From Barthelona sp. PCE (lineage: Eukaryota): a stretch of DNA of 64,000 nucleotides. Below the pieces are notes generated by a model. The model saw nothing but the letters and a program-made list of their open reading frames with translations, was not told where the DNA came from and ran no database searches. The stretch covers positions 124,001-188,000 of the forward strand of contig JAUFOR010000008.1 in the NCBI GenBank assembly GCA_040285745.1. The letters run 5' to 3'. Both the position numbers and the translations under genes were made by a program. Below, piece by piece: positions 15,052 through 64,000 of the stretch (the first letter of the stretch is position 1; each line of letters opens with the position of its first letter).

Positions 15052-18022
15052 ATGAGCAAATCTAAAGATATTGAAACATGTTTATCATCTAAGGTATGAA
15101 TAACACGTCTTTTAAAAGACATTCATTTTTGTTTGCATTTACATTCAGGAAGTCAAGGCTTTACATCGAGAAAACTTTGAAAACGAGTATCAGGAGCACT
15201 ATCCAGCTGAGTTTTTAACTTCATTGGGCTTTGAACGTCTTCAATGTCCTTCATGTAACCACTTCTTCTGGCGTCATAATGAAAGCACTCTTGACGTCTG
15301 TGGTGATTCCAACTGTGTGGGACAATACACTTTTATTGGGAAGGGTTGCGGCATTGGTTCTAACGAACTTGAGTCTCCCCAAAAAATCACATTCGGCGAG
15401 GCTTGGAACATCTACGTAGACTCAATGAAGACTTACGAGCACCCATCAACGCCTATTCCTCGTTTCCCCGTCGTTGCACGTTGGAGGACCGATGTTGATT
15501 TCGTTGCTGCAGGCATTTATTGTTTCCAACCATACTGCGTCACGGGCGAGGTTGATCCACCGGCTAACCCCCTTGTTTGCCCCCAATTCTGCCTTCGGTT
15601 CAACGATCTAGATTCGATCGGTCTGTCAGGAAGACATCACGCTGGTTTTATCATGATTGGTAATCAGGCTTTCAATTATGGTGATGACATCCACTACTTT
15701 GCTGATGAAGTTGTTGGTGCCCATCTTCACTGGGTCACAAAGGGTCTCAATCTAAACCTTAAGGATATCACTCTTATCGAGGATCTTTGGGCCGGTGGTG
15801 GTAACATGGGTCCTTGTGTAGAAATATTTACACACGGTCTCGAAGTCGGCAATATGGTTCTAATGAAGTACCGTTACGATAACGTTGGTGAACTCACCCC
15901 CCTTGACGTCAAGGTTGTTGATGTTGGTATCGGTCTTGAGCGTATCCCATGGCTCGTCAACGGCACACTCACCTCTTACCAGGACACTCATGCTTATGTT
16001 CTTGAGTACCTACAGGAGAAAACAGGTGTTGAGCTCGACAACGAGATATGGCAAAAGTTTGCCCCCTACTCTTGTCTTCTTAATGTTGACGAGTGTGAGA
16101 ACATCGACCAGGCCTGGGAAGACATTGCCAAGGAGCTGGGCGTTGACGTACAGGATCTCCGCTCCGCTGTTGAGGCAGGACGCGATATTTACATTATTGC
16201 TGACCACACTCGTGCTCTCATGATCCCCGTCTATGATGGTGCTCTTCCTTCACAGTCCGGATCCGGTGCAAACCTGCGTAACATCATCAGACGTGTGTTT
16301 GCCATCCTCAACGAACGTAATTGGATTTCTTCTATTGGATTCGATGGAATCATGCATATCTTTGAACTTCATAAAAAGCAGCTCGAGCCTTTATACGGTA
16401 AATTCGCTGACTTCTCCTCCCTTGAGGGTATTATTCGCTCCGAGTTTGACAAATACGAAAACTCAACTGTTGAAGTCACCAAAAAACTCAAACAACTCAT
16501 GAAGAAGAAGAAAGATGGTCTTTCTCTCAATGATTGGATCATTCTCGTTTCCAGCCACGGTCTCCCTGCAGATAAAATCGCTGAAGTCTTGGGTGAGCCC
16601 ATCCCCGGTAATCTTTACTATGAGATTGCTACTCTTGACGAGAAGACATCTGCCAAGCAGATTCTCCAGCTGTACGACACTGTGAAGATCCCTGCTACCC
16701 GCGAACTATACAAGGAGAACGAACGACAGATGACGTTTAGCTCCAAGGTTGTTACAATTCTTGATAGTGTTGAGCTCAAACTTCCCAACCGTGTTGTTAT
16801 TCTTGAAGAAACATGTTTCTACCCCACATCAGGTGGTCAGGAGCATGACATCGGTACCATCACAATCAATGGCGAAGAATACAATGTTATTGATGCTATC
16901 AAGGTTGGTGGTTCGGTGCTTCACACGGTTGACAGAGAAGTCACTGTTGAACCTGGAACAGAAGTAACTGGTATCGTTGACGAGCAGCGTCGTGAAACAC
17001 TCCGTCAATTGCACAGTGCAACTCATATTCTAAATCACGCTGCCCAGATGGTATTAGGCCCTCATGTGTGGCAAAACGGTGCTTCTAAGAAAGCCACTGG
17101 TGCACATATTGATATCACACATTACAAGATCATCACTGAAGAAGAGATCCTTGAGATCGAGCGCATGTCGAACGAACTTATTAGGAGTCGTGCTGAAGTT
17201 GTCATCAAAGATTTCCCACGTGAAGAGGCTGAGCGCCTTTATGGTTTCTCACTTTACCAAGGTGGTGTTGTCCCAGGTAACAGTATTCGTGTTGTTAACA
17301 TGATGGGTATTGATATCGAGGCATGTTGTGGTACTCACGTCCAAAACGTTTCAGAGATTGGCTTCTTACGTATCACACGTTATAACAGAGTAAGTGATGG
17401 TGTTTCACGACTTTACTTTGTTGCAGGTGATCTTGCTTCTCAATACACTATGGAACAACAGCGCATCATCTACAAGTTGCGCAATGATTGGTCTGTCGAT
17501 CAGGAGGACATTGTAAGCACTGGTGAACGTTTCTTTGCCGGTTATAAGAGCTACAAGGCCGTGGCACCAATTGCTTTAGAGATGACTCTTCGTGCGAAGA
17601 TGGCTGAGGCTGCTCTTGGTCCCGTTGAAGGACATAAGCTTCTCTTTGTTGATCACACGAGCGATGCCTCTGTATATATTAGAACAATGCCTCAGATGTT
17701 TGATTTCATCAAGGATCATGGCCTTGAGGTGGTAATTGTTGGTGGTAATTATGTTGTTATGAACAAAGGTTCAGACTTTGAGGAAGAATTCATGGGTAGC
17801 TTTGAAGATGCTGTCAATGTTTTGAAGGAGAGAAATGCTGATGCCTTGGACTATAGCAAGGCTAAAATCATTAAGAAGAACAAGCTTAAGGTTAAAACTA
17901 AGGTTAATGGTAAGAAGAAGGTTATTAATCACACTGGTATTGCTCATCACAGTTTGATCAGCTGCCCCAAGGCTGTTTCACTTAAGAATTTCTTTGAGGA
18001 AGCTGGTTTCATCTTGCAGTAA
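15052..18022 (+). CDS. alaS: alanyl-tRNA synthetase, archaeal type; join(15052..15093,15149..18022)
   Basis: RFPVVARWR-D...IYCFQP...PPANPL...LRFNDLDSIG-SGRH, W-GGGN-GP and VD-GIGLER are archaeal-type AlaRS motifs. Editing-domain motifs HSATH and CCGTH are present. An upstream ATG exon (MSKSKDIETCLSSK) joins in frame across a 55-nt intron. Confidence 0.93.
15094..15148 (+). other. spliceosomal intron (55 nt) in AlaRS
   Basis: GTATGA donor, T-rich tract, TTCAG acceptor. Removal gives the ATG-less 932-aa ORF an in-frame ATG. Confidence 0.85.
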
Positions 18023-18055
18023 ATGTTTTTTATTTCTCACGTTTTTCAGCAGACA

Positions 18056-21000
18056 ATGACAAACGATATCTATTATTACGAGCGATTACCCGAGTACAAA
18101 GTTACCAACTATGGGGAGATGGTTTTGTTTGAAGATTTAGAGTTGAAAAACAACTTTTCTTTGTTGGAGAAAGATACACTTAAAATGAGTACTCCCAACT
18201 CGCAAGATGTTGCAGATACTAAGAAGGAACAAGGTTCCAATTTCGGAAAAACGTTCTACAGTCACGGTATTTTTGGGGTGTTCAATCGCATGATTATATT
18301 AATATCTTCAGTTGCAAAGATCGGTACAATTGGCTCATATGACGTCTTCAAGGTTACAAAATTTGATTTCTTGCAGTTTAACGAGAATGAAAAAATGAGC
18401 GATGCTGAAAAACTAGACTTTGCACAAACAGAATTTAAATGTCGGTCGAAGATAACTCGCGATTAGCGAGTTGTCCAATCTTTACTAATAATAGTAAATA
18501 TAAAGATGTTTACAAGTGAATGAGAAAACTTCTATCAAAATTCTAAAGGGAGTTTCGCTTTTATTACCCGTATTAGTCTTCTACAATTACATGATTGGTC
18601 TCAAACATAGTCAGGTGTGCATACAGAGGGAATCGATAGTTGAGGTTGAAAGAAAACCTAGAGATTATAAAAACTCTTTGTATTTCACTATCCAGTACAG
18701 AACAAGAGATGGAACAGATGCAACTGAGCGTTTCATCATCAGCGACTGCTGTTTTGCAAGCAGGAAAAGCTTCACTTCCGAAAAATTTGGAGTTTTGCAC
18801 ATTCATCCTCATGTGAGTTATTCAACTCCCATGCTAAGGGCAAAAGTCGGGTTAAGATGGAAATAGGCAAATCACTGACCAAGAATCAAGCCCATATGGT
18901 TGGACTTTTCATTTTCACGGGAAAACCCTTCACTGATCATTTACCATTAGATGTTCAGGGAAAATATTAGCCACTGCTCTTAATCACAAGTTGATACAAG
19001 AGTCATTCATTTCTAAGCAAGAAATTCGAGAGAAACTGAACATAAATGGATTTGATTACTCCACTATAAGAAAATGTTTAAAAGGCTTGCAAACAAAAGC
19101 CGGTGATAGAGATTTTATCACCAGCAAACAGTTTAGTGGAATGATGAACGAACAATTGTTTGAGTGGAACGATGATCATAGATACTGGGAATGTATAGAT
19201 CCTAATGTCTTTCGTAATTCACTTTATCCAGGATATTTTGGAATTGACCATAGAAATATTCGAAATATAAGGGTGCATTTTCCAATGAATATCGATAACA
19301 GTGATATATTTGCTTACCATGGTCTTCGTTTGAAAGATAAAAGTTTGAATAGTATTAGCAATCGATATGGTCGGAAATGGGCTTCATCTTTCACGCTTTT
19401 TCTGAGACACAACGCGTCTATGGTACATTCATTCGTTTTGAAGACATTAGTACATTCTCTTAAAAAACAAGCAGAGCTACAGGGTGGTGCCTGTTGCAGC
19501 TTTGAATATGACGTTTCCAGTGACAGTTACAGCGCTGCTCTCATTGTAATGAAGGTCCCAGAGCAATTAGTTATTGATTATATTGATGATCCTATTTATA
19601 ACAGAGATACCAAAATGTTCTTTAATGACACACGCTCTACTAAAACAATGAATGACTACATTATTAGTTTAAAAGGAAGGTTTGTGGTCTTTGACATTTT
19701 TGATGTGGAGTACAAAGATCTTAACGACCTTACAATTTACTCTGATGCATTAGATGAGGGATACCGTAACCTCACAATGCCTTCAAGTATGAACAAGTAT
19801 GGAAAACGGTCTCAAGACGTTGCATATCATATATTATCATCTTTTAAGCGAAAAGGAGTAATTGAAGAATTTTCCATCATTGAGAAGGAATCTAGAGATG
19901 GTTGGGGTTTACACGAATGTATTGTTGACATGGGAGACTCCAACATCAAGATCGTTATTGGTACAGATAACGGTACGCCTGAACAGACAGCATGTCAGAA
20001 AATTGTTGATGCATGTACGTCAATATCACGTATGCCATGTGCCTGCCATGTGCTCAACAAGCTAATGAGCAAGACAGTTGGATTTGAAGTCTTTGAAAAT
20101 GAAGGTTTATGTGATGGTGTAATAGAGGATATAAATTTGCTTAGTAGAGTAGATACTGAGATAAATGTTGATATTTTCAATAATATTACAAGTACTGTTC
20201 CCTTCAGGAGGCTTCGCAAGAAACTTGAGTCAAGAACACTGTTCACTAACCGTTTACCAACACGTTCTCCTGCTGTTAGACTTTCATCAGTCGTGGATCT
20301 TGAGAAGACTAACATGAGATTCACCGGTTCTGTCAACACAATAGAGGATATTGATGATGAAACTATTGAATCCGTTTGTATTCATGACAACTCTGATAAC
20401 CCTGGGTTTAGGGATGAAGCACTTCTCTTTATCTTCGCGTACGTTTCATATTATGAGACGCAGTGCATCGAGTTTTTAGAGGGTAAAAACAAACCGAATT
20501 ATTTGATGAATTTTGATATTTATCTTAACAACAAAGCGAATTTTGAGTCAAGAGGAGGAAGTCAACGTGAGCGTCCCACTGTTCAACAGGAGATACCCTT
20601 CTATGATGGGTTCACTCGTCATCTGAATTTGATGCCGTTGTATGAGTACTCCAATCTTATTAAAGAGCAGAAAAATGTGTGCAAAAGTTCGCCAGCATTC
20701 AGTCTGTTATTGCAGTTGAGATCATGAGTGTCTTCTTTAAATACAATTCATTGTGGTGTACGTATACAGGTAAAAGCTGTGTTCTTAAGCAAGTTCGTTG
20801 GAGCTCTTTGGAAACTATATATGAAGTGTTGTGTAGTGGACTCTATGTTGACATCCCCTTAACAGCCATGCCAGGCTTAAAAATAGCGATGAATTCAGAT
20901 AATGTAGTAGTTGACATGTCGCATTTGGAAATCACTGAGGCTTTTTTAAATAGTGAATATTTTCAAGATTTTGAGTTTAAGTTGCCGATTAAACGTATTT

Positions 21001-23873
21001 TTAAATCAACGAATAACCAATACGATGCCTCAACTCACTATCGACATTTTTTGTGTCCTTTCTATGAAGCCTTGAATAACGCAGACAATCAACCGCATGC
21101 GTTTTCTCTGGGAACTGATATGTGGAGCTTAAGCAAAGCTTACTTAACCGTTTTAAGACAACTCATGCACATTCAAAAGCTTTGCAGCGATAATTCCACT
21201 TCTGCTTTACATGCTTATCATCAGATTGCAATGTTGTTGTTTTGCCTTCTTAGATATAAATCCGAAGCTATTTATACGAAGAATTTATTGAAAATAGCAT
21301 ACTTTAAAGGGCTATTTGAGTACAATAGGCATTACTTGTGTAAGTTTTTTGTTATGCCGGAACCCTTGGTAGCATATCTCCTCTGCGGACATGAGCACGT
21401 GAAGATGAAAGATATTGTCTACCCCGAAGAACAAAAGCAGAAAACCTCCCAAGAAGGGTACTTTAAGTGAGGAATTGAGAGACTTGTGTCAAGACTTTAG
21501 CTATATAAGCGAGTTACTACCTAACATAAGGAAAGAGTATGTGTTTGTACGTTTAAAAGGTGTGATGATATATTCGTTTCTGCAAACAAAATTTAAAAAA
21601 GCATTTTGTTGATGATCATTCACATGCACTTGTTGCTAATGAAATATCTGTATATAGAGAAATAAGTAATCAGTTTATGCATCCTAAGTACTACAAAGGT
21701 TTAGTTGCTCACATTATTTCACTTCTTTGTACTAATTTTTACTCTGATTTTTCTTCCTGTAATGAAGAACGTCAAAATTTGCAGGATGTGTTGAATGCTC
21801 AGAATAATGATAATCGTATTACACAATCCCCTTTAAGATCTCAAAATGAAGGAATTTTGGCTGAAATACTATCCCCTTACGATATCCCACCACCTTATGC
21901 AAATGAACCGCCTGTTTCAGCCGCAAGATCATCATCATATGAGTTCAATTTTGATGATCAGAGTTTGCGTGAGAGGGATATTCGCTCGGCGCTGATTTAT
22001 GGTTGCCAACATGAAGATGTGGTTGGTTTGAGTGTGATTCAAGAGATTGTCAACAAGTACAAGACGGTTCCTGCAAGCAACGCATGTGTTGAGCGTGGAT
22101 TTTCGGTGTTAAAGACTGCACATACATGCAAACAAAAATTGCTTACCACCCAATTGCGATTTGACTGGTTTTTATACCATGAAGTAGGTGCAGTTGCAGC
22201 ACTAACAATTGAGGATATTGAGAAAGCCATGAATATAGAAAGGGAAGCTGAATAAGTAGTATGAGGAAAACTTCATTGTTTCACAGAATAAGTATGATTG
22301 TTCACCTCAATGTTGACTGTTCTTGTTCGTTATGAGGTTTATTTAATAAAAAAAAGAAGTTTGTTAAACTAATGTTGGGGAAAAATTCACAAAAAAGTTG
22401 GTAGTTTTCTCATTCACTTGTAAACATCTTTATATTTACTATTATTAGTAAAGATTGGACAACTCGCTAATCGCGAGTTATCTTCGACCGACATTTAAAT
22501 TCTGTTTGTGCAAAGTCTATGAAAAACTTGTCATGCACTTCTTCTCTCGCTTCACTGATTTCTTTTTCTCTACAAGACCATTATCGTGCCCTTTACATGA
22601 GACAGAACAACGTCCCGAGTTCGAGTTTACAAGTTTCTTGCAAAAGAAGATTGTTGGTAATTCAGGTCCTTTGATTCCTTGCATTTTCGGTCACGTGGAT
22701 ATGCAGACATTTGATGGTGTTGATAGCTATGGTAAGGACACCACTTTCCAAATAGGAATAATTGCACGCCGTCATTGTGCTCGTTTAGGTAAGCGTTTCA
22801 TCGTAAGAGGCATCGATGATACTGGCAGTGTGGCAAACTGTGTTGAAACCGAGTTTTTTATTTGCGATGCAAACGAGGATGCTCTAAGTGGTGAAACAAC
22901 ATTCCAGTCCATGTTAATGTTACGCGGTTCCATCCCACTGTATTGGGAGCAGAAAGCTAACATGCGTATCAGCCCTCCCATTCGTATATTGAAGGAAGAT
23001 CATTACTCTGCCTTTGAGAAACACTTTGAGCAACTGGCACACGCCTATGAGAAGGTTGTGTGCGTTGATCTTGTCAACCAAAGTGGGAAAGAAAGCGTTC
23101 TTCAACAGAAATTTGAGGAGTTGTGCACCAAGGCTGAAATTTCTTATCATGCCTTTGATTTTCATAAGGAATGTGCGAATATGCAGTATCATAACCTGAA
23201 TAAGCTCATGGAAAAACTTGAACCTGAATTCTCCAGTTCTACTGTAACTATTTCACCAGGAGTCAGCACAGTTGATGAGGAACAAACTTCAGTATTCAGA
23301 GTGAACTGCATGGATTGTCTCGACCGCACAAACGTGTGCCAGAGCTCAATTGCGCGATTCTTATTCGATCGTTGTTACGATGGTCAGTTCACAGAAAATG
23401 AAGCTGCTCAGCGTGCCTTTCGCTATCTCTGGGCCGATCACGGCGATGTGTTGGCACTGCAGTACGCCGCCAGTCCGGCCATGAAGAGAGATTTCGTACG
23501 TACAGGAAGAAGGTCTCCCATTGGAGTTTTGTGCGATGGATCATACAGCATCCGCCGTTTCATTTCCGGCAATTTCATCGATCATAATGATCAGAACGCA
23601 ATCGATATCATGCAAGGAAGGGATATTGAATACAAGAGCAACGATAAAATGATCAAAATATTACTTGCATCATTTGCTTTTATTTATGTTTTATTACGCT
23701 TTATGGGTGTATCAAGGAAACAATTTGTGTTACTTTTGGTCATTTTAACCGCTTCCGTGCTGCGTTTCATGGGAGAAAAATTCGTTTGCCATCCCATCTG
23801 GAAGGGTCATAAATCTGAGCCTTCAAAGACGCAAGAGGATACTACTCCTGATGACGAACAACAAGTTCAGTAA
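18056..23873 (+). CDS. SAC1: Sac1 phosphoinositide phosphatase, interrupted by a hAT transposon; join(18056..18413,22528..23873) = 567 aa when the element is removed
   Basis: The 3' part has G-RF--RGID--G-VAN-VETE, RGSIPLYW-Q, the catalytic RVNCMDCLDRTN and two C-terminal TM helices. The 5' part has GIFG...IG-I...VFKV. The restored junction reads ...SDAEK-LVMHFF... in frame. Confidence 0.92.
18406..18413. repeat. target-site duplication, left copy (TGAAAAAC); right copy at 22520-22527
   Basis: Identical 8-mers directly abut both TIRs; 8 bp is the hAT TSD length. Confidence 0.95.
18414..18530 (+). repeat. left terminal inverted repeat (117 bp)
   Basis: Exact reverse complement of 22403-22519 on base-by-base comparison. 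Confidence 0.96.
18591..22255 (+). CDS. hAT transposase, split over five ORFs; probably spliced (exon boundaries tentative), alternatively frameshifted
   Basis: Motifs appear in canonical order: SFEYD (first D, about 19510), GTDNG (second D, about 19966), PCACHVLN (CxxH, about 20040), VRWSS (RW, about 20796), FMHP, and PASNACVERGFS (catalytic E/dimerisation domain, about 22091). Confidence 0.85.
22403..22519 (-). repeat. right terminal inverted repeat (117 bp)
   Basis: Exact reverse complement of 18414-18530. Confidence 0.96.
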
Positions 23874-24258
23874 ACCCAGTTGACTCATCTTCTTCTCTGC
23901 TCATGACGATTGTTTCGAATGTGCCCAATACAATCTCTGCTGTTGTATAAACGATCGAGTTCTCCTTCAAATGACCACCTGTACATGTGCCGTTTTCGTC
24001 ACTGACCGTTATATGAAGGTGGATACCATCAGGTGTTAGTGTACCAGTTAGAGATGTTATCTCCCAGGTATCACCCTCTAAAAAGACAGGCTTTGGTACA
24101 TCAGCAAATCTGATATTGACGTTCTTAAGTGATCCGACACATGTAACCACAAAAAAGCTTCTACAATGATCAATGGCAAATTGCTTCAAATAAGTATACA
24201 AATCCGTGCCCTCTGTGAGTCTAAATGCTGTGAACTGTGCGTTTGAAAATTGTTGCAT
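23842..24258 (-). CDS. PPC/DUF296 domain protein
   Basis: RL--G-DL, TCVGSL, EITSLTGT, HLHITVSD--G---GGHL, VYTTAEIV and TGF-EL motifs. Confidence 0.92.
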   Translation of the reverse strand: MQQFSNAQFTAFRLTEGTDLYTYLKQFAIDHCRSFFVVTCVGSLKNVNIRFADVPKPVFLEGDTWEITSLTGTLTPDGIHLHITVSDENGTCTGGHLKENSIVYTTAEIVLGTFETIVMSREEDESTGFTELVVRHQE

Positions 24259-24416
24259 GGATGATTTGGTTCAAATAGCCCAAAATAATGTTGTAAATGA
24301 GATATATATATACAAACAAGTTTTAAAATGAGAATACAACATTTTTACAAGCTTCAAATTGATAATATACACCAATAATACCTCAATAAGACAATGCAAG
24401 AAACGAAAAAGTTGTT

Positions 24417-24989
24417 ATGGATATCTTACCTAATTCACATTCAGATCCTGTGGGTAAATCACCAGAGGTTGTGAGATCGGTGTCCACGGAGCCCATGTCA
24501 CCACCTGGAACACCACCTGTAGCTACAAAAGACACACAATTAGTTGATAGTGGGCTTTATTTCAATTTGATAGACGGAAAATCATTATTCATTCCGGCTT
24601 GCTGCTTCGAACAGTCCGAAGTACTGCTTGAGATGCTTAAAAAACAGGAATCACACTTGTATATACCTTTTTGCCAGGATGTGGCATCAAAATTTGTGAG
24701 TTTCTGCGTAAACCTTTTTCACAACAAAGAGATCACCCCAGAGTTCGAAAGGGAATTCCTAGATATACACATGGAATTATTATTAAATCTTGTATATTTT
24801 TCAAATGAAATGAAAGCTGTTACCTTTAAAAAATTTGTAACTAAACCTTTAATTCGCATACTTAAAACAGCAACAGTCAGTGAAATACAGCATATCTTTG
24901 ATTTACAACATTCTGCATTAGAAAGTCCATTACTTGATGAGATTCAATCAGAAAATGACAAACTTCTTGATTTACTAACACTGGAATAG
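24417..24989 (+). CDS. Skp1-like protein (divergent)
   Basis: C-terminal EFEREFLDI...LLNLV..SN.M...IK-like...EIQHIFD...EIQSEN resembles the Skp1 dimerisation domain. Confidence 0.7.
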   Translation: MDILPNSHSDPVGKSPEVVRSVSTEPMSPPGTPPVATKDTQLVDSGLYFNLIDGKSLFIPACCFEQSEVLLEMLKKQESHLYIPFCQDVASKFVSFCVNLFHNKEITPEFEREFLDIHMELLLNLVYFSNEMKAVTFKKFVTKPLIRILKTATVSEIQHIFDLQHSALESPLLDEIQSENDKLLDLLTLE

Positions 24990-47278: not shown

Positions 47279-49210
47279 ATGGCATTCGCAGACAAATACG
47301 CGATATCCCCGGCATTCTCTTTCAATCAGGATGAGAACAAGATATCAATTTTTGACACCATTAATGAGGGGGCAGATAAGTTTCTTTCACATGAAGAGAT
47401 CGAAAAGGCGCTGTCTCAGACGAAACGCGCATCTAAATCATACAAAATATCAGAAACTCCAAAAAAGAATCCAAAGCTTTATGAAGGACTGGGAACTGAT
47501 AGAGAGCTTTTTCTCACACAATCACCGGCAGTTGGTGTGCACAATCCGAACTATAACGTAAACAAAATGAAATCACCAAGGATAAAATTTGGAACCAGTC
47601 CTGCTCGACCAATTGTTAAGGTTGAAGACCATGAACGCATTGGCCCTGGTGATTACGAGGTACAGAGTACATTCATAAAGAAGAAAGCTAAGAATAAGAT
47701 TCCAAAAAAGCAAACGCGAAAACAGTATATCTCGAAAAACCATGAAGTTGAGAACTTTGGTAAGAACAGCCCCGGTCCCGTGTACTATCCTAAAAACGAT
47801 GGCTGTTTCCCGCCTGCTCCACCTGTAGGTTATTCCCCGAGCATGAATATGTGGCGATCACGAGTTGTTCGGAAACGCAAGAAGAAATTGGAGATGAAGA
47901 AGAAGGGTAAGAGTCTGGGTGAGCATCTTGATAAACAGATCGAGCAGATTGAACGAAATATAGCCAACCCCAATGAAGAACCTGTACCGGTTGAGACAGA
48001 GTTTAAAGAAGAAGAAACGGTTGAAGAAAATATGAAAGATGAGATTCCACTCGGTGCCGAAGCAGAAAAGGAGCTTGTCGTTGAGGAAAAACTACCTGAT
48101 GATGTTGTTATTGTATCCAGTAAGGAATTGAAAGAAATTGTGACATCACCTCGTCTTTTATCAGTTCCCAGTGAGTTGGATGAGAAGAAAGAGACCGAGA
48201 AAGAGACGGTTGTTGCGGACTTTGACAGCGTTGATGAAGAGGAGGACATGAAACACATGGAGATGACCGAATCTGAAGAAAATATTTCTCCCAAGTCTGA
48301 TGAAGAGCATGTTGTTATTGAGGAAGTAACTGATATGGTTGAGAGCACAGAGGCTGTTGAAACAATTGAAGTTTCCAGGTCTGAAGCTGATGAGGTTGAA
48401 GATGAAACTGAAAAGGTTGAAGATGAAACTGAAAAGGTTGAAGATGAAACTGAAAAGGTTGAAGATGAGACTGAAAAGGTTGAAGATGAGACTGATAAGG
48501 TTGAAGATGAGACTGATAAGGTTGAAGATGAAACTGAAAAGGTTGAAGAGAAAGTGGAAAAGGAACTCATAAAGGAGGTCAAGACTGAACCCCAAACGGA
48601 AAAGGTAGCTGAAGTTCCCAAGATTGCTCTTGAAAAACGCCCAACGAGCAATGGAATGATAACGCCTCGCCAAAGTCGCCGCAAACACACACTTGAGACT
48701 CCAAGAACTGTTAACAATCGTACCCCTGCTGAGAAACCAGTAATGCGAACACCACGCGGGTATTCTATCAGAGGAAAGAATGTGCAGAGTGAAAGGGCCA
48801 GGTTCATCAGTCCTATGCACTCTCTCCATGAGCCAGCATCACACAAAAACAAAACGCCTGGCCCAGGTCAGTATAAGATCCGCAAAGATGTCAATCTGAA
48901 GCACAGCCCAACGTTCTCGAAGGTACGAAGGGAGACTGGTATGGTCAACAAGATCGAGGGTGATTACCGGTTCTATAACATTGGAAGTTCTCTGGGTGCG
49001 GCCGGAAAACGTACACCTAGGAAGAAGAAAGCGTATTCGCCCACACCCAGGCGGAAAGGCAAGAATAAGAAGAGACAAAGTTCTGCAATTGCTGATGTCC
49101 AGAAGGTTTCTGAAAAAATTGACTTAAAGAAGCCAGATTTGGCTGAATTAGCGTTCGAAATGATCGAAAAGGAGGCAAATTTGTTCTCAAATACGCAACC
49201 AAAAATGTAA
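47279..49210 (+). CDS. SHIPPO-repeat (PGP-repeat, ODF3/STPG-like) protein with acidic central insert
   Basis: SPAFSF, SPRIKFG, IGPGDY, SPGPVY, TPGPGQY and SPTFS motifs flank a Glu-rich region. Confidence 0.7.
   Translation: MAFADKYAISPAFSFNQDENKISIFDTINEGADKFLSHEEIEKALSQTKRASKSYKISETPKKNPKLYEGLGTDRELFLTQSPAVGVHNPNYNVNKMKSPRIKFGTSPARPIVKVEDHERIGPGDYEVQSTFIKKKAKNKIPKKQTRKQYISKNHEVENFGKNSPGPVYYPKNDGCFPPAPPVGYSPSMNMWRSRVVRKRKKKLEMKKKGKSLGEHLDKQIEQIERNIANPNEEPVPVETEFKEEETVEENMKDEIPLGAEAEKELVVEEKLPDDVVIVSSKELKEIVTSPRLLSVPSELDEKKETEKETVVADFDSVDEEEDMKHMEMTESEENISPKSDEEHVVIEEVTDMVESTEAVETIEVSRSEADEVEDETEKVEDETEKVEDETEKVEDETEKVEDETDKVEDETDKVEDETEKVEEKVEKELIKEVKTEPQTEKVAEVPKIALEKRPTSNGMITPRQSRRKHTLETPRTVNNRTPAEKPVMRTPRGYSIRGKNVQSERARFISPMHSLHEPASHKNKTPGPGQYKIRKDVNLKHSPTFSKVRRETGMVNKIEGDYRFYNIGSSLGAAGKRTPRKKKAYSPTPRRKGKNKKRQSSAIADVQKVSEKIDLKKPDLAELAFEMIEKEANLFSNTQPKM
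48395..48549 (+). repeat. 21-bp coding tandem repeat, 7 full copies plus a partial (VEDETEK)
   Basis: Unit GTTGAAGATGARACTGAWAAG read directly from the sequence. Confidence 0.97.
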
Positions 49211-54825: not shown

Positions 54826-55380
54826 ATGAATATTAAGGACTACAACCGCTTTATCTTTGACATTAACGTAGTTTATGGGTCTGATGGTCCAGAATATAAG
54901 GCCATTGAATTTTTAAGAAATATTAAAGAGATTGAAGATGCTAAAGTGCTATTCGTAACAGATAACTCCACGGTTCCCGAAAGCCATTATGTAGATATGT
55001 TCAAAACAAATGGAATTGATTGGATTTTGCCAGAACATATTATTTCTTATCATAAACTAACTGATTTAGTTACTAACAACACACAAAACACGACATCCCA
55101 TCTTGTAACACCAATTGATGAGACAGAAGAGCATATCAGTATCATACACAGCTACCTGCCTCTTGCCAACAATAGCAAATGTATTTTCTTTTGCATGCTG
55201 CTTGACCATGTTCGGTTTGCGAGGTCATTCGGCATTGACTCGTGCGTAGTTGCGTCGTCAGATCTTATTGAGCAGATGTCAGAAGAGGAAATCACACCAA
55301 CCTTTGCAGAAGACAGCATTTTTTCAATTTTATCACGCATGGCTTTTGAAAATCACCGAGAGTACTGTAGAAGGAAGTAG
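54826..55380 (+). CDS. degenerate HAD-IIA paralog (cap-less, catalytic motifs altered)
   Basis: Collinear with the N- and C-termini of the adjacent phosphatase (MNIKDYNRFIFD vs MDIDNYNTFIFD; LFVTDNST vs LFVTNNST; FARSFGIDSC vs FANTFGMDSC). Confidence 0.8.
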   Translation: MNIKDYNRFIFDINVVYGSDGPEYKAIEFLRNIKEIEDAKVLFVTDNSTVPESHYVDMFKTNGIDWILPEHIISYHKLTDLVTNNTQNTTSHLVTPIDETEEHISIIHSYLPLANNSKCIFFCMLLDHVRFARSFGIDSCVVASSDLIEQMSEEEITPTFAEDSIFSILSRMAFENHREYCRRK

Positions 55381-55460: not shown

Positions 55461-56279
55461 ATGGATATTGATAATTACAATACGTTTATCTTTGACTGTG
55501 ACGGCGTTCTGTGGCTACTCGGCGAGCCACTTAAGGGGGCTGTAGAGTTTTTAAATTACCTGCATGATGAAAATCAAAAAATTTTGTTTGTAACCAATAA
55601 CTCAACGCTTAGTGACGTTGAATACACAAAAAAGTTCAAACGCATTGGTATTGAGTGGGTTGAAAGAGAACAAATACTGACTTCTGCCAAGATTAATGCT
55701 TTTGTCATCAGTAAGCACTATAAAGAGGGAAAGGTGCTTGTTCTTGGAGAACAGGGAATACATGATGAGATCGGTGCCCATGGTATACCCACTATATCTG
55801 CCCATGTGTCGAGCATGGAAGAAGTCAACGATGTACTGTCTAACAACCACATTACTTACGTTGTTGTAGGACTTGACAGGCATGCCAGCTACTATGCATA
55901 CGCCGTTGCAGGACTTGCTGTAGCCAATGGAGCAAAGTTTTTGGCGACAAACACCGACGCTCAGCTACCTTCAAAATATGGAGGTTTACCAGGTGCTGGT
56001 CACAACGTGGTGGCGGTCGAAACCGTGTCCAACACAAAAGCCATCGTCACCGGTAAACCGACTAAGTTCATGTATGATTACCTAAAGACCTTCTTGAATG
56101 AGGGCGATTCTTGCATCTTCTTTGGTGATCGTCTTGAAACTGACATTTTATTCGCAAATACCTTCGGTATGGACTCGTGCCTAGTGTTATCGGGCGTCAC
56201 AACCCCAGAGATGCTGGATGGAAACAGTGTGCAACCCACATATGTCAAAGATGGGCTTTTTTCCGTATTACCTCGTTAG
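55461..56279 (+). CDS. HAD-IIA phosphatase (phosphoglycolate/4-nitrophenyl phosphatase family)
   Basis: FDCDGVLW, VTNNS, ATN-D, PGAG, GKP, GDRLETDI and LVLSGV motifs. Confidence 0.95.
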   Translation: MDIDNYNTFIFDCDGVLWLLGEPLKGAVEFLNYLHDENQKILFVTNNSTLSDVEYTKKFKRIGIEWVEREQILTSAKINAFVISKHYKEGKVLVLGEQGIHDEIGAHGIPTISAHVSSMEEVNDVLSNNHITYVVVGLDRHASYYAYAVAGLAVANGAKFLATNTDAQLPSKYGGLPGAGHNVVAVETVSNTKAIVTGKPTKFMYDYLKTFLNEGDSCIFFGDRLETDILFANTFGMDSCLVLSGVTTPEMLDGNSVQPTYVKDGLFSVLPR

Positions 56280-56332: not shown

Positions 56333-58237
56333 TTAGTATAGAAATGAATCATAAGAAGTAAAAATCGAAACATTACATTCAGATACATAAGAACCTAAGT
56401 CAATTCTACTATGCTGCTCTTCAAATGCAGTGTGCGTTGTATTGAATGTGAGGATACTCATCTGAACATAAAAGCCGTTCCATTCAGCCGATGAATAAGA
56501 TACAAGCACGCGTGATCCTGGTGATACAATCTTCAAAGTTTCGTTGCACCCAGGTTCTTTAAACTGCTTTGGAGTGTCCAATACTACAACTAAGCCCTGC
56601 GTATCATGCGAAAAAACCTTATCGTTATAGAAGAAAGCAGCTTCCCCGATGAAAATAGGATATGCCCCTTCAGCAAACTCCACAGTGTTGTACACGTCCA
56701 CATGATCTCTGTCGGCACCATACCTAACGTACACGCATTTTCTATTGCCCCAACTACCGTAAGTAACAAAAACTTCAGAACCGCAGTATGGATTCGACCT
56801 TATGCTTAATATCTCCCTTTCAAACTTGTGATATCGTGAATTAACCACGTTTCCATCATCGTCAAGCTCATGTGCAATCAATTCCTTCTTCATGAACATC
56901 CACACACTGTTATGAACAAGCTCAACGTGATCATTACGTGCTGTCTCTCCTATACCGACACCATTAACAGACATCTCAGTGCTTGTGCCCATGCTGTGCG
57001 AACTGATAACGTGCCGGTTGTTGAATAGCGGGAACATCAAATGCCCTTTGCGTTTGCTATACATCCTCACACCATCAACGTAGAAATGATAACTTCCATT
57101 ATGCTCAGTGATACAACATAACCTCCAGCGTTGAATTCCATCATCAAAAAAGGAGTACGAATCAATCAATATATGGTCAACAAAAGCAGCAGATGGTTGA
57201 AAAAATAAAATACCATTGTTGTAAAAATCCCACACAACTTGATACGTACCAACTAACTGCTGAAGGACCTGCAACTCGCACTGGAAATAATCTAAGGTGT
57301 TCTGCAATGCAACCACTCCCTGCTGCTCAGCATACCATATAGGTCTAAACCTTGTACACATACTCTCTGTGTCTAGAGAGCTACTGTATTCCGCACAATT
57401 AACACTCACTATGTTGATTAGCGATGAACAAACGGTGTCATCCAGAATAGTATCATACGGAATAACTGAATCACTTAACCACATATAATCGATGAAATCA
57501 CCATACTCATCTCTAGGTAGCTCAAAGTCAACTAAAACCTCTTCAATGGTACCGCTATAATCAATGTTGTACGTGGCGTACCCTCCTTCTGCTCTGAAGA
57601 CGAACTTATGACCACCAGGCGTTCGATCTGTGATGACATAAGTATACTGCGAAATGGCATGGTCTTCGATCATAACCGGTGTGTTCCCGTCTTCTTCGAA
57701 CGTGAGCATGCCACAGATGGAGTTCTTTGACTCATTAATGAGAAAAGCAACATTATCCTGAACAAAAAAATAACACTCGTTACCTTTCCCAAATTCTCCT
57801 TGGCATTTAAACTCAAAAATTTCACCGTTCTCAAGATTAAGCATCTCAAACCAAAAGCAACCCTTGCCTTGTGCCCAGAACTTTTCATTAAGCAAAAATC
57901 CATCTTTGTTAAATTGAAATTGCATTTCAGGGTATTTCCGCATAATAAACTCCCCGCACACCAGCTCAAACACTTCAAGCACCTGCTGGTTGCCATTTTT
58001 AAAACAACGAAAGAATATTGTGGGATCCAAAAAGGATTGACTCAACATCAGGTCGTTTGAAAGCATATATGTCTCACATTGTGGTGGATTACTAACTATT
58101 TCACCCTCTTTGTGCTGTCCAAGAAGTTTAAAGTCATTCTGAATCAATACATCACTTGATGAAGTAAGAACTAACCATTCATTGATTCTTTCTGCTGCCA
58201 GAGCCCCTCCGCCCAGTGTTTCCCCTGCTTTCAACAT
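56333..58237 (-). CDS. hypothetical beta-rich (propeller-like) protein
   Basis: Likely start is MLKAGE at 58237, preceded by TTTCAC. The ORF-track extension to 58744 overlaps the next gene in another frame. Confidence 0.7.
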   Translation of the reverse strand: MLKAGETLGGGALAAERINEWLVLTSSSDVLIQNDFKLLGQHKEGEIVSNPPQCETYMLSNDLMLSQSFLDPTIFFRCFKNGNQQVLEVFELVCGEFIMRKYPEMQFQFNKDGFLLNEKFWAQGKGCFWFEMLNLENGEIFEFKCQGEFGKGNECYFFVQDNVAFLINESKNSICGMLTFEEDGNTPVMIEDHAISQYTYVITDRTPGGHKFVFRAEGGYATYNIDYSGTIEEVLVDFELPRDEYGDFIDYMWLSDSVIPYDTILDDTVCSSLINIVSVNCAEYSSSLDTESMCTRFRPIWYAEQQGVVALQNTLDYFQCELQVLQQLVGTYQVVWDFYNNGILFFQPSAAFVDHILIDSYSFFDDGIQRWRLCCITEHNGSYHFYVDGVRMYSKRKGHLMFPLFNNRHVISSHSMGTSTEMSVNGVGIGETARNDHVELVHNSVWMFMKKELIAHELDDDGNVVNSRYHKFEREILSIRSNPYCGSEVFVTYGSWGNRKCVYVRYGADRDHVDVYNTVEFAEGAYPIFIGEAAFFYNDKVFSHDTQGLVVVLDTPKQFKEPGCNETLKIVSPGSRVLVSYSSAEWNGFYVQMSILTFNTTHTAFEEQHSRIDLGSYVSECNVSIFTSYDSFLY

Positions 58238-58412
58238 GATTAAAATGTGAAATGCAATAAACTGAAGTTGAAAAGAAAAGAAAAAACTAATACATCTAAC
58301 GTCACTGCAATGTGATTCATCAGACCTCAAACGTGCCACTGGACATGTAGATCTTATAAAAAAGTAAATATAAGCCTCAGTCATACACACACACACTTTA
58401 TTGTGAATTGAA

Positions 58413-59729
58413 CTACCAATTAAACAAACCTTCTTCATCAGATACAGCCAGTGCATCTGACAAAGTCCTCTCGTCAACAGTACTCTTACTGTTTTCAGGT
58501 TCAAAAATGACCTCATTATCACTAACCACAAAGCTATCACCCAAAAATGCATTACTAGGTTCAACCTCTGAAAAAAGAGTAGCTTGACTAAGATTCTCAA
58601 CGTGCCCCCTCCTCCTCTCCTCTGGTTCAATCTTTGAAGCAAAATAGAAATGTCCCTCATTGTAATTTGAAGCAAAAACTCCAGTATTCGATTTTGAAGA
58701 CAATGATTGTGGAACAAAGTCATCATCATCATCATCATCATCAAAAAATTCAGGAATAGTTGATGAGGGTTTCAAAGCTGTCTTTTGTGAGGGTAAAACC
58801 TGACCGTACGAAATCTGAGAAATCGCTGATGGAACTGCCGGACTTGATGTTGGAACACCTGTAAAAACAAAGTTAGACGGTGGGGGAGGTATTGTAGACA
58901 TCATGGGGGTGTTCATAGACGGTGCTCTGTGCTTTCTTGTTGCTGAAATAGGCAGAGTTGGCATGGACGATAAAGGCATCGTCTTTGGCAATGCAGGTAG
59001 TTTTGTTGACATTGGTTGGCCCATTGTCTTCCTAACCTGCTGTTCTCTGCGCGAAACTGACCGCAGAGGGCGCAATCCAACGATTTCTACGTCTTCTGTA
59101 AGCGGTTCAAGTGGCACGTCCTCATTTGGATCAAAGGTATTGTTCTGTGGAGTTAAATCAATACCCAACATGCGTGGGACCTTATGAACCTCTCTCTCTT
59201 TACGCCTGTTACTGGAGCCTCTCTTCTTATTCGGAGCAGTACTGCTAGTATCGAACTTCAGCGTCGAAAGAATCGATCGATTTACGTCGCATGTGTAATC
59301 AATCACAGGTATTGCGAATGTGGGGGCATCTTGCACCTGATATTTTGGGATAAATCTTGAAAAAAACACACATTGGTATCTTTCAAAAGCCGGTATAATG
59401 CTGAAATGCGGACCATCCTTCCATATAGTTGGCTCCACGAACAAGACGGCGTTTGACTCCATACACAGGCCCGTTGATATCGCTAATTCAGAAGAAATGG
59501 AAGAAGTTAAAGTTTTTAGCGGAAAATGTGGATTTGGGTCAAAATTTATATGTAATATGAAGTCGTTTTTCGTTAGTTCTATGCCATTAATCGAACCAGC
59601 AAAGTAACGAACCTTCACAAGCGATGATATTGTATTAATAACGTCAATCAGTGTATTTTTAAAGTCAGATTCATTCAAAATGCCAGCATACTGTGGAAAC
59701 GCAGCTGTCAAATGCTCTTTATAGCTCAT
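58413..59729 (-). CDS. hypothetical protein with Pro/Ser-rich disordered C-terminal half
   Basis: 438-aa ORF with two copies of TTTTCAC upstream. Confidence 0.7.
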   Translation of the reverse strand: MSYKEHLTAAFPQYAGILNESDFKNTLIDVINTISSLVKVRYFAGSINGIELTKNDFILHINFDPNPHFPLKTLTSSISSELAISTGLCMESNAVLFVEPTIWKDGPHFSIIPAFERYQCVFFSRFIPKYQVQDAPTFAIPVIDYTCDVNRSILSTLKFDTSSTAPNKKRGSSNRRKEREVHKVPRMLGIDLTPQNNTFDPNEDVPLEPLTEDVEIVGLRPLRSVSRREQQVRKTMGQPMSTKLPALPKTMPLSSMPTLPISATRKHRAPSMNTPMMSTIPPPPSNFVFTGVPTSSPAVPSAISQISYGQVLPSQKTALKPSSTIPEFFDDDDDDDDFVPQSLSSKSNTGVFASNYNEGHFYFASKIEPEERRRGHVENLSQATLFSEVEPSNAFLGDSFVVSDNEVIFEPENSKSTVDERTLSDALAVSDEEGLFNW

Positions 59730-59889
59730 TTTCGAAAATTAAAAAATCGAAATGCTGTGAAAAGGTGTGAAAATATACTACGGTATGACAGGGTACCGTT
59801 ATTACACATGATAAGCCAATGAAGACTGGGAAATTCAACACTCATTTGTTATCGTTGTTCAATCCCATTTCACACAACTACTTGTACAA

Positions 59890-60599
59890 ATGCCCAGACA
59901 AAAGCTATTTCCTACTCTTTCACGAGATGAACCACGCGATCTTATTGTTCTGAGACCTCTGTTAGTATGATTATCCGCACATTTTTTTCCTAATGTCCAT
60001 TTAATGGAATTAGATTTTTGAAAATGCGGCCATTAGACCAAATTCACACTTAGATTGATGCTCTTGCTGAAAAACAAAAGGAACTCCAAGAAATTTTGGA
60101 TGAACTATGTCTTGTTAACAACAGTATCACACCTGGCTTCAAAACTGCACGAGGCAACCCCATCGAACAAGAACGTGAGGACATATCAGATATTATTGCC
60201 TACCTCTCAGAAGATATAGAATTGGAAGAAAAACAATTCCCACAACTCCTTCAAGAAGCTGTTGAACTTCTTGACAGTGGTAGAACCTCATCGGGCCTCA
60301 GAACTTGTATCAGACGTGATCCTGAATTGCTTGAATTTGCCAAGGAAGTTGGATTTATTAACGAGAAAACTGTTCCACTTGTCCCCCTTAAGGGTAGAGT
60401 TGTGGCTTCTCAAGAAGTTGAGTCAGAAGATGAGGAGAAGGATGAGGAGAAGAAGCCCAAAAAGAAGTCAAAGAAGCGCAAGAAGAGAGATGATGAAGAG
60501 GATGAGGATGAGCGTTTTGACGAAGTAGATGCACTTGATGAAATCAGGAAATCTAAGAAAAAGTCAAAAAAATCAAAAAAGAAGAAGGGTAAGAAGTGA
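59890..60599 (+). CDS. charged nuclear protein, possibly RNA polymerase III Rpc31-like; join(59890..59964,60054..60599)
   Basis: An ATG exon (MPRQKLFP...RPLL) joins in frame to IDALAEKQKEL... across an 89-nt intron. Acidic/lysine-rich tail. The Rpc31 resemblance is weak. Confidence 0.6.
59965..60053 (+). other. spliceosomal intron (89 nt)
   Basis: GTATGA donor (same as the AlaRS intron) and CTTAG acceptor; phase-0 removal supplies the missing ATG. Confidence 0.75.
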
Positions 60600-63613: not shown

Positions 63614-64000
63614 TTATCGGAGTAACCTCAGCGTGGCATCAGACTTTGGACCCGATGAAAATGACAGTCGAGGTGGAATACTAATGGTGTTGTGCATGGG
63701 CGGATCAACCTCTCGCATGTCTTCCATGAATAAAACCTTCCTGAAATGTTCCTTAGCTTCGCGAAGTTTACGCGCTTTATCCTGCTGCTCAATATGACGG
63801 GTGAAGCCCTGAACAACAATAGGCTTTCCGCTGCTGGTGGGTAACTGCGTTTGTTGAGGTACAAATGTGCATTCCGTTTGCTTATCGGCTTCGATTCTCT
63901 GTTTCTTCGTCTGTAACTTCTGCTTCCTCCTCTTAAGCATCTCAGATATGCGCGTGTCCAGGTTTTCTGTGTCATTAACGTTAAGCGAGTACTTACTCCT
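63614..64000 (-). CDS. partial hypothetical protein with ECTFxP motif (5' end off the window)
   Basis: The frame is open to base 64000; ECTFVPQ...PIVVQGFTRHIE..ARKL. Confidence 0.65.
   Translation of the reverse strand, partial: RSKYSLNVNDTENLDTRISEMLKRRKQKLQTKKQRIEADKQTECTFVPQQTQLPTSSGKPIVVQGFTRHIEQQDKARKLREAKEHFRKVLFMEDMREVDPPMHNTISIPPRLSFSSGPKSDATLRLLR

Follow-up and report, generated by a model that had tools for sequence, protein, structure and literature searches.

A recent hAT-like transposon insertion within the Sac1 coding sequence of Barthelona sp. PCE

In a 64,000-nucleotide stretch of the Barthelona sp. PCE genome (contig JAUFOR010000008.1, positions 124,001 to 188,000; hereafter the window), a transposon of 4,106 bp interrupts the coding sequence of Sac1. 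The reading that we favor, with a probability of roughly 0.55, is that the insertion created a fresh null Sac1 allele that coexists with empty alleles. In the proposed course of events, an autonomous cut-and-paste transposon of a lineage-restricted, hAT-like family would have jumped into Sac1 very recently, perhaps in culture, duplicating eight target bases upon insertion through DDE chemistry presumed to resemble that of Hermes and Ac. The filled allele would most likely be null, with Sac1 translation ending after 17 codons of the element and its transcript probably cut at an AGTAAA hexamer 27 bases beyond the stop. Empty alleles, carried by the homolog or by different cells in the culture, would keep the cells alive while the assembly displays the filled allele. 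The parts of the interrupted locus are as follows.

18056..18413, + strand: Sac1 5' part; 119 codons and one further base, covering roughly two thirds of the N-terminal subdomain (Syja_N matched weakly, E 0.017; profile)
18406..18413, + strand: target-site duplication, left copy, TGAAAAAC (repeat comparison)
18414..18530, + strand: left terminal inverted repeat, 117 bp, starting with TAG and containing internal imperfect palindromes (arm alignment)
22403..22519, - strand: right terminal inverted repeat, 117 bp (arm alignment)
22520..22527, + strand: target-site duplication, right copy, TGAAAAAC (repeat comparison)
22528..23873, + strand: Sac1 3' part, comprising the end of the N-terminal subdomain, the whole catalytic subdomain with CX5RT and a hydrophobic tail (Pfam, PDB, profile)

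The two 117-nt arms (18414-18530 and 22403-22519) are 100% complementary, and the matching ceases beyond them. The octamer TGAAAAAC at 18406-18413 recurs at 22520-22527 as an exact 8-bp target duplication. Both features had been described in a first-pass annotation made from the same DNA, and both hold at the positions given there; of the TAG/CAG termini that it also described, TAG is seen at both ends and CAG is not seen. The arms form the sole long inverted repeat of the 64-kb window (self-BLAST E 5e-55), and a chance origin of the pair is excluded. Pieces of the end sequence (12-mers) occur nowhere else in the window, Rfam gave no matches across 17500-24500, and a 28-nt end pattern had no matches in the JGI metagenomes.

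When the element and one copy of the duplication are removed in silico, 567 codons and one stop are read from ATG 18056, as the first-pass annotation had predicted. Against a Sac1 profile built from 98 full-length homologs of 540-640 amino acids (aa), chosen from 119 non-self matches, the protein of the empty site gives a single-domain alignment that runs through the junction (E 3.7e-112), and both halves are intact in this alignment, consistent with the earlier claim that neither carries other damage. The restored protein contains the SAC domain with its CX5R(T/S) motif (CMDCLDRT at residues 380-387), as in Sac1 phosphoinositide phosphatases. Its C-terminal tail is hydrophobic, with a single hydropathy peak above 1.9, at 494-497, in a test for two membrane helices. 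The 3' half by itself exceeds the Pfam SAC cut-off (Syja_N E 1.1e-48). Residues 50-362 of the 3' open reading frame (ORF) align with residues 182-503 of yeast Sac1 (E 1.4e-49), and the break therefore falls within the N-terminal subdomain. The SAC domain, the CX5R(T/S) motif and the C-terminal hydrophobic tail are shared with yeast Sac1 (3LWT/4TU3), from which the Barthelona protein differs in being divergent (its best other matches are 30-40% identical) and in being split inside the N-terminal subdomain. The two halves are catalogued as separate proteins of 136 aa (P0132) and 446 aa.

The 136-aa product arises by read-through: the Sac1 frame enters the element for 17 codons and meets a stop at 18464-18466. 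Candidate poly(A) signals follow this stop and the stop of the transposase gene described below.

18481..18498, + at 18493 and - at 18481: back-to-back candidate poly(A) signals AGTAAA in the left end (gene-end enrichment and coding depletion; function predicted)
22345..22452, + strand: three candidate poly(A) signals after the transposase stop, AATAAA at 22345, TGTAAA at 22419 and AGTAAA at 22447 (signal scan)

In this genome AGTAAA, AATAAA and TGTAAA appear to serve as poly(A) signals at transcript ends. AGTAAA occurs in 12 of 36 gene-end zones versus 0 of 612 coding windows, and AATAAA in 11 of 36 versus 2 of 612; the gene-end enrichment is partly due to overlap with TAA stops. Across 34 coding sequences, AGTAAA, AATAAA and TGTAAA are found 2, 1 and 0 times, versus codon-shuffle expectations of 10.7, 12.1 and 7.6, respectively, and an AGTAAA count equally low was reached in 2 of 300 shuffles. 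Coding DNA shows no depletion of the hexamer AGTGAA (16 observed, 11 expected). Based on AGTAAA in the left end, the Sac1 transcript is probably cut there, which would make the allele null and, with the stop codon that the left end also brings in, splicing-out of the element unlikely. AGTAAA is present on both strands of each element end. Selection for such two-strand signals was considered and rejected as a firm claim: 0.9% of 5,000 shuffles place AGTAAA on both strands, a figure that rises to 7% when any one of the three signals is accepted, and the comparison is post hoc. AGUAAA (AGTAAA in DNA) is reported as the poly(A) signal of Giardia (PMC9014877), where it is regarded as derived (PMC11529991). 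Mixed signals, Giardia-like AGTAAA beside canonical AATAAA, in the Barthelona lineage, which is sister to Fornicata, would bear on when the Giardia signal originated.

Several + strand ORFs lie inside the element, and the transposase frame of this copy is in pieces. The first-pass annotation had named an ERxFS dimerisation motif; that part stands, with ERGFS located in the last internal ORF, and the annotation had overlooked five one-base shifts that break the frame. The shifts emerged when the intact paralog P0128 (1,221 aa) was walked along the element between ATG 18591 and the stop at 22255.

18591..22255, + strand: transposase gene, 1,221 codons, with shifts near 18795, 18965, 20674, 21435 and 21601 (comparison with P0128)
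19510..19512, + strand: candidate first catalytic Asp, D308 of P0128 (FEYD), with D369 as the alternative (invariant in 4 of 4 full-length paralogs; role from the presumed hAT motif order)
19966..20049, + strand: candidate second catalytic Asp, D460 (GTDNG), to CxxH, C484-H487 (conserved; covered by a weak DUF659 match)
20796..20801, + strand: RW motif, R737-W738 (invariant in 4 of 4; label from the presumed hAT signature)
22091..22093, + strand: candidate catalytic Glu, E1168, in ASN..E.GFS (invariant in 4 of 4)

All 1,221 of 1,221 residues match P0128, with zero substitutions, once five one-base shifts (three -1, two +1) are allowed. Every shift sits in an A or T run 4-6 bases long, although runs of at least four equal bases make up 307 of the 3,665 bases of the gene. 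The shifts are very probably unpolished homopolymer errors of long reads. Such errors are described as the commonest long-read residue, often persisting after short-read polishing in repeats (Polypolish). Short reads may have been assigned to the identical twin copy, leaving the errors in this one unpolished. Each shift is over 380 bases from either end of the element, a distance that read pairs anchored in unique DNA would probably not span. The family falls into four sequence groups, each with one full-length protein (P0128, P0129, P0131 and P0125) accompanied by one or more truncated or split members (the window copy, P0122, P0124 plus P0130, and P0123, respectively). One intact and at least one broken member per group is the pattern expected where polishing fails in repeats. 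Decay is expected to bring many substitutions per indel. The absence of change at roughly 2,700 replacement sites indicates that the copy is extremely young, whether the shifts are errors or real; because the twin was compared as protein and not as DNA, silent differences would be invisible. The earlier inference of a very recent insertion is thus strengthened by the identity to an intact paralog and by the intact Sac1 halves. Two other accounts of the split transposase were rejected: a nested insertion or introns, given that P0128 aligns without gaps, and an old dead copy, given the lack of substitutions. More generally, an active family can pass for a dead one when its transposases are annotated in pieces in a nanopore assembly.

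The window copy and eight named proteins, whose locus numbers are not adjacent, imply that the family occupies at least nine loci; the searches for relatives were limited by words or clusters, and nine is therefore a floor. Identities range from 100% down to about 37%, so the family appears to be old in the Barthelona lineage and yet to have very young copies. Four paralogs are intact (1,210-1,227 aa), which suggests that the family is still moving and favors the activity proposed in the first-pass annotation, itself a prediction from sequence. Five of the eight other family proteins are on a contig as large as the window's (2,170,504 bp), with P about 0.014 if loci were spread by length over 10.2 Mb. 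Clustering of family loci on one contig may reflect local hopping.

Every named relative is a Barthelona sp. PCE protein. A search of 1.84 billion representatives at E 0.001 returned four matches, three of them family members and one spurious, and none outside the species; the spurious match, P0126 (E 2.7e-4), is a bacterial TPR protein and was dropped. Word-based searches upheld 3 of 6,133 and 3 of 6,609 candidates, all from Barthelona sp. PCE. With the family alignment, 401 pattern matches in metagenome contigs and 109 in viral contigs gave no confirmed member, and the ESM Atlas held no usable match for the whole transposase or for residues 295-510. Among the papers listed on Barthelona or metamonad hAT elements, we found no description of this transposon family, subscription papers and Repbase-type libraries being outside the scope of this search. 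The main text of the genome paper mentions transposons once, concerning Skoliomonas (PMC11316075), and its supplements, apart from one image-only file outside the scope, contain no matches for Sac1, transposon, ploidy, clonal or Ku70 terms.

The first-pass annotation held that the duplication, termini and motif define the element as hAT. The 8-bp duplication and the motifs fit; the 117-bp ends, the lack of a BED finger and the failure of every hAT family in Pfam to reach its cut-off make this wording too strong. D308, D460, C484, H487, R737, W738 and E1168 are invariant in all four full-length paralogs, and the order D...TD..CxxH...RW...ExxFS is what we take to be the order of the hAT catalytic core, with CxxH and RW as a presumed hAT signature. 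In hAT enzymes the DDE triad sits in an RNase H fold interrupted by an insertion domain, to which CxxH and RW belong, and D308, D460 and E1168 are the candidates for that triad. In Pfam, DUF659 alone recurs, with scores short of its cut-off (E 0.006-0.11), in three of the four full-length proteins and in the window ORF. ASN..E.GFS is conserved, yet the hATC (Dimer_Tnp_hAT) model does not appear among Pfam matches with E of 1 or less. The best hit of a PDB profile search is unrelated (E 1.8), with no sequence match to Hermes or any other chain, and among the sequences returned there was no alignable hAT from another organism for a placement among the Ac, Buster and Tip groups. Two AlphaFold models computed from alignments of seven rows had low confidence (pLDDT 35.8 and 41.0). 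With these poor models, Foldseek gave nothing at E 0.001, and a wide fold search reached at best Z 3.9 (root-mean-square deviation 3.5 over 67 residues), with no transposase among 50 rows.

Published hAT elements have an 8-bp duplication, a length of 2.5-5 kb, a single transposase and terminal inverted repeats of 10-25 bp (PMC3942097). The Barthelona element shares the duplication, seen here at one locus, as well as the length and the single transposase gene (4,106 bp, one gene of 1,221 codons). Its ends, in contrast, are 117 bp long and symmetric, and the transposases, at 1,210-1,227 aa, are about double the usual size, the BuT2 enzyme having 643 aa (PMC3942097). The transposases also differ in lacking the N-terminal BED finger that hAT transposases are predicted to bear (PMC10368747): none of the four full-length proteins has a CxxC in its first 310 residues or a zf-BED Pfam match. 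Imperfect palindromes in the element's ends at 18454-18472 and 18478-18508 are candidate transposase binding sites and could stand in for the subterminal repeats that BED fingers bind. The spans from CxxH to RW (about 250 residues) and from RW to E (about 430 residues) are far longer than those of Hermes, which are about 50 and about 250 residues. Excision of hAT elements proceeds through hairpins formed on the flanking DNA. MuDR/Rehavkus and P-type elements also have long inverted ends, duplications of 8-10 bp and a CxxH motif, and the present element shares its long ends, 8-bp duplication and CxxH with them. At E up to 1, Pfam listed no MULE, P-transposase or THAP family; the hAT models do no better, so that divergence may hide either affinity. 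The RW and ASN..E.GFS motifs are presumably hAT-like and unlike those of MuDR/Rehavkus or P-type elements. On these motifs and the duplication, the element probably works like hAT, and we file it as hAT-like rather than as an established member. A transposase of about 1,220 aa that lacks a BED finger and has no relative outside its species among 1.84 billion representatives would widen the range of hAT-like enzymes.

The coexistence of filled and empty Sac1 alleles is supported by several lines of evidence: (i) The exact duplication, perfect ends and restored collinear frame mark an insertion into a previously whole gene. (ii) The top 120 of 973 matches include no other close Sac1, and SAC1 is reported to be essential in mammalian cells (PMC5829913). 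(iii) Most insertions of Tvmar1 in Trichomonas are at low frequency (PMC4021607). Tvmar1, like the present element, is a young metamonad DNA transposon; it is described as insertion-polymorphic and as affecting neighboring genes (PMC4021607). It differs in belonging to the Tc1/mariner superfamily and residing in a repeat-bloated genome, whereas the insertion described here lies inside a conserved coding sequence. Other points weigh against coexistence. An assembly consensus usually displays the majority allele, the protein collection has no entry for a whole 567-aa Sac1, and a divergent or longer SAC-domain paralog may exist. Real slippage is a possible cause of the frameshifts. In yeast, deletion of sac1 is viable. 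On ploidy, heterozygosity and clonality, the main text and searchable supplements of the genome paper have no occurrences (PMC11316075).

An unlikely alternative is that all copies are filled and Sac1 is lost altogether, the loss being compensated by rich culture or by another SAC-domain phosphatase. The assembled sequence is indeed that of the filled allele, the split products alone are on record, serial subculture has been described for a Barthelona line, and the survival of yeast without Sac1 counts here as well. However, the search for other Sac1 paralogs, which the first-pass annotation had proposed and which took in proteins of 247-788 aa, turned up no other close Sac1 in those top 120 of 973 matches, and the reported essentiality of SAC1 in mammalian cells (PMC5829913) argues in the same direction. 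Neither half has decayed, although a very young null would look alike.

It is improbable that the cells instead bypass the insertion through a transcript that starts in the element's right end and yields a shortened Sac1. ATG 22533 opens an in-frame ORF of 446 aa in the 3' part, and such a protein would keep the whole catalytic subdomain and the membrane tail, losing just the first part of the N-terminal subdomain. The 3' ORF, which spans yeast Sac1 182-503, scores 357 bits against the Sac1 profile versus 363 bits for the whole restored protein, and a T-rich stretch at about 22405-22418 resembles, by eye, those upstream of host genes. In yeast the N-terminal subdomain binds the partner Vps74, but the two Sac1 subdomains are described as intimately associated (PMC4137058). 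In addition, an out-of-frame ATG at 22519 (51 codons), formed by the element's last base and the right duplication, lies just ahead of ATG 22533, and AGTAAA 22447 stands between the T-rich stretch and the ORF.

Transposons in exons can be removed by splicing, as with maize Ds exon insertions and Introner elements, and the Barthelona element likewise lies within an exon and has dinucleotides usable for splicing close to its ends. Short spliceosomal introns occur in the host (11 candidates are listed, of which 15094-15148 is convincing), and the ranges scanned contain 35 in-frame GT-AG pairs, one of which, 18441 to 22515, would add 13 residues. Yet this element is autonomous and 4 kb long, whereas the two convincing host introns measure 30 and 55 nt. 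None of the 35 pairs has a donor like the host GTATGA or GTAAGT, no GTA(A/T)G or GTAxG donor (a consensus from two introns) occurs within 18056-18600, and the element contains four candidate poly(A) signals in sense orientation. It is thus very improbable that the element is spliced from the Sac1 pre-mRNA as an intron. That the assembler pasted a repeat copy into Sac1 is hardly credible: the copy is protein-identical to another locus and carries error-like indels, but an exact 8-bp duplication at precise ends and a restored frame are the mark of transposition and not of mis-joining.

Outside the element, 53,403 of the 59,886 bases of the window are in long ORFs, so that 89% of this DNA is coding and most new insertions must strike genes, in agreement with the expectation of genic insertions in the first-pass annotation; introns in the window are rare and short. 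The genome is reported as 10.2 Mb with 4.46% repetitive sequence, assembled from nanopore reads corrected with Illumina, and apparently no free-living eukaryote has a smaller one; why it became reduced is described as not clear (PMC11316075). A DNA transposon family moving in about 89% coding DNA would offer a handle on selection strength, ploidy and sex.

The metamonads examined in one survey lack Ku70-Ku80 and DNA-PKcs, and some have alternative end joining (PMC8516963); Barthelona was not noticed among the taxa of that paper. Excision of Ac/Ds is described as normally leaving 1-base footprints (PMC2921059). The element might represent an active, giant, BED-less and long-ended hAT-like branch that tolerates landing in genes, with a Ku-less host repairing excision exactly by means of an empty homolog or by annealing the two 8-bp duplications, although we consider this distinctly doubtful. 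If it were true, the Sac1 locus would be a mosaic of filled alleles and alleles cleanly emptied again without footprints, the two-strand poly(A) signals in each end would keep host transcription out of the transposase gene, and exact repair of the donor site would let an active element persist where safe landing sites are nearly absent. For donor-site healing in metamonads reported to be without Ku and DNA-PKcs, the Sac1 locus would be a ready-made reversion reporter.

The window contains several other features. Upstream, a gene at 15052-18022 (+) encodes an alanyl-tRNA synthetase, which appears to be archaeal-type; it ends 33 bases before the Sac1 start and has a likely 55-nt intron at 15094-15148. 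A second likely intron, at 63967-63996 (-), is very short (30 nt, GTAAGT...ACACAG). Downstream, a convergent PCC-domain gene at 23842-24258 (-) overlaps the 3' end of Sac1 with its own 3' end by about 30 bases. A tandem repeat at 48382-48563, within the ORF 47279-49210, is the sole other repeat in the window self-comparison. Two adjacent ORFs at 54826-55380 and 55461-56279 (+), presumably HAD-family phosphatases, have similar starts; the first is shorter and diverged, and perhaps the two are a tandem duplicate. At 56333-59738 (-), two ORFs on one strand share about 360 bases, the second with an unclear start, and at 60054-60599 (+) there is a 181-codon ORF without Met; introns or sequence errors are possible in both places.

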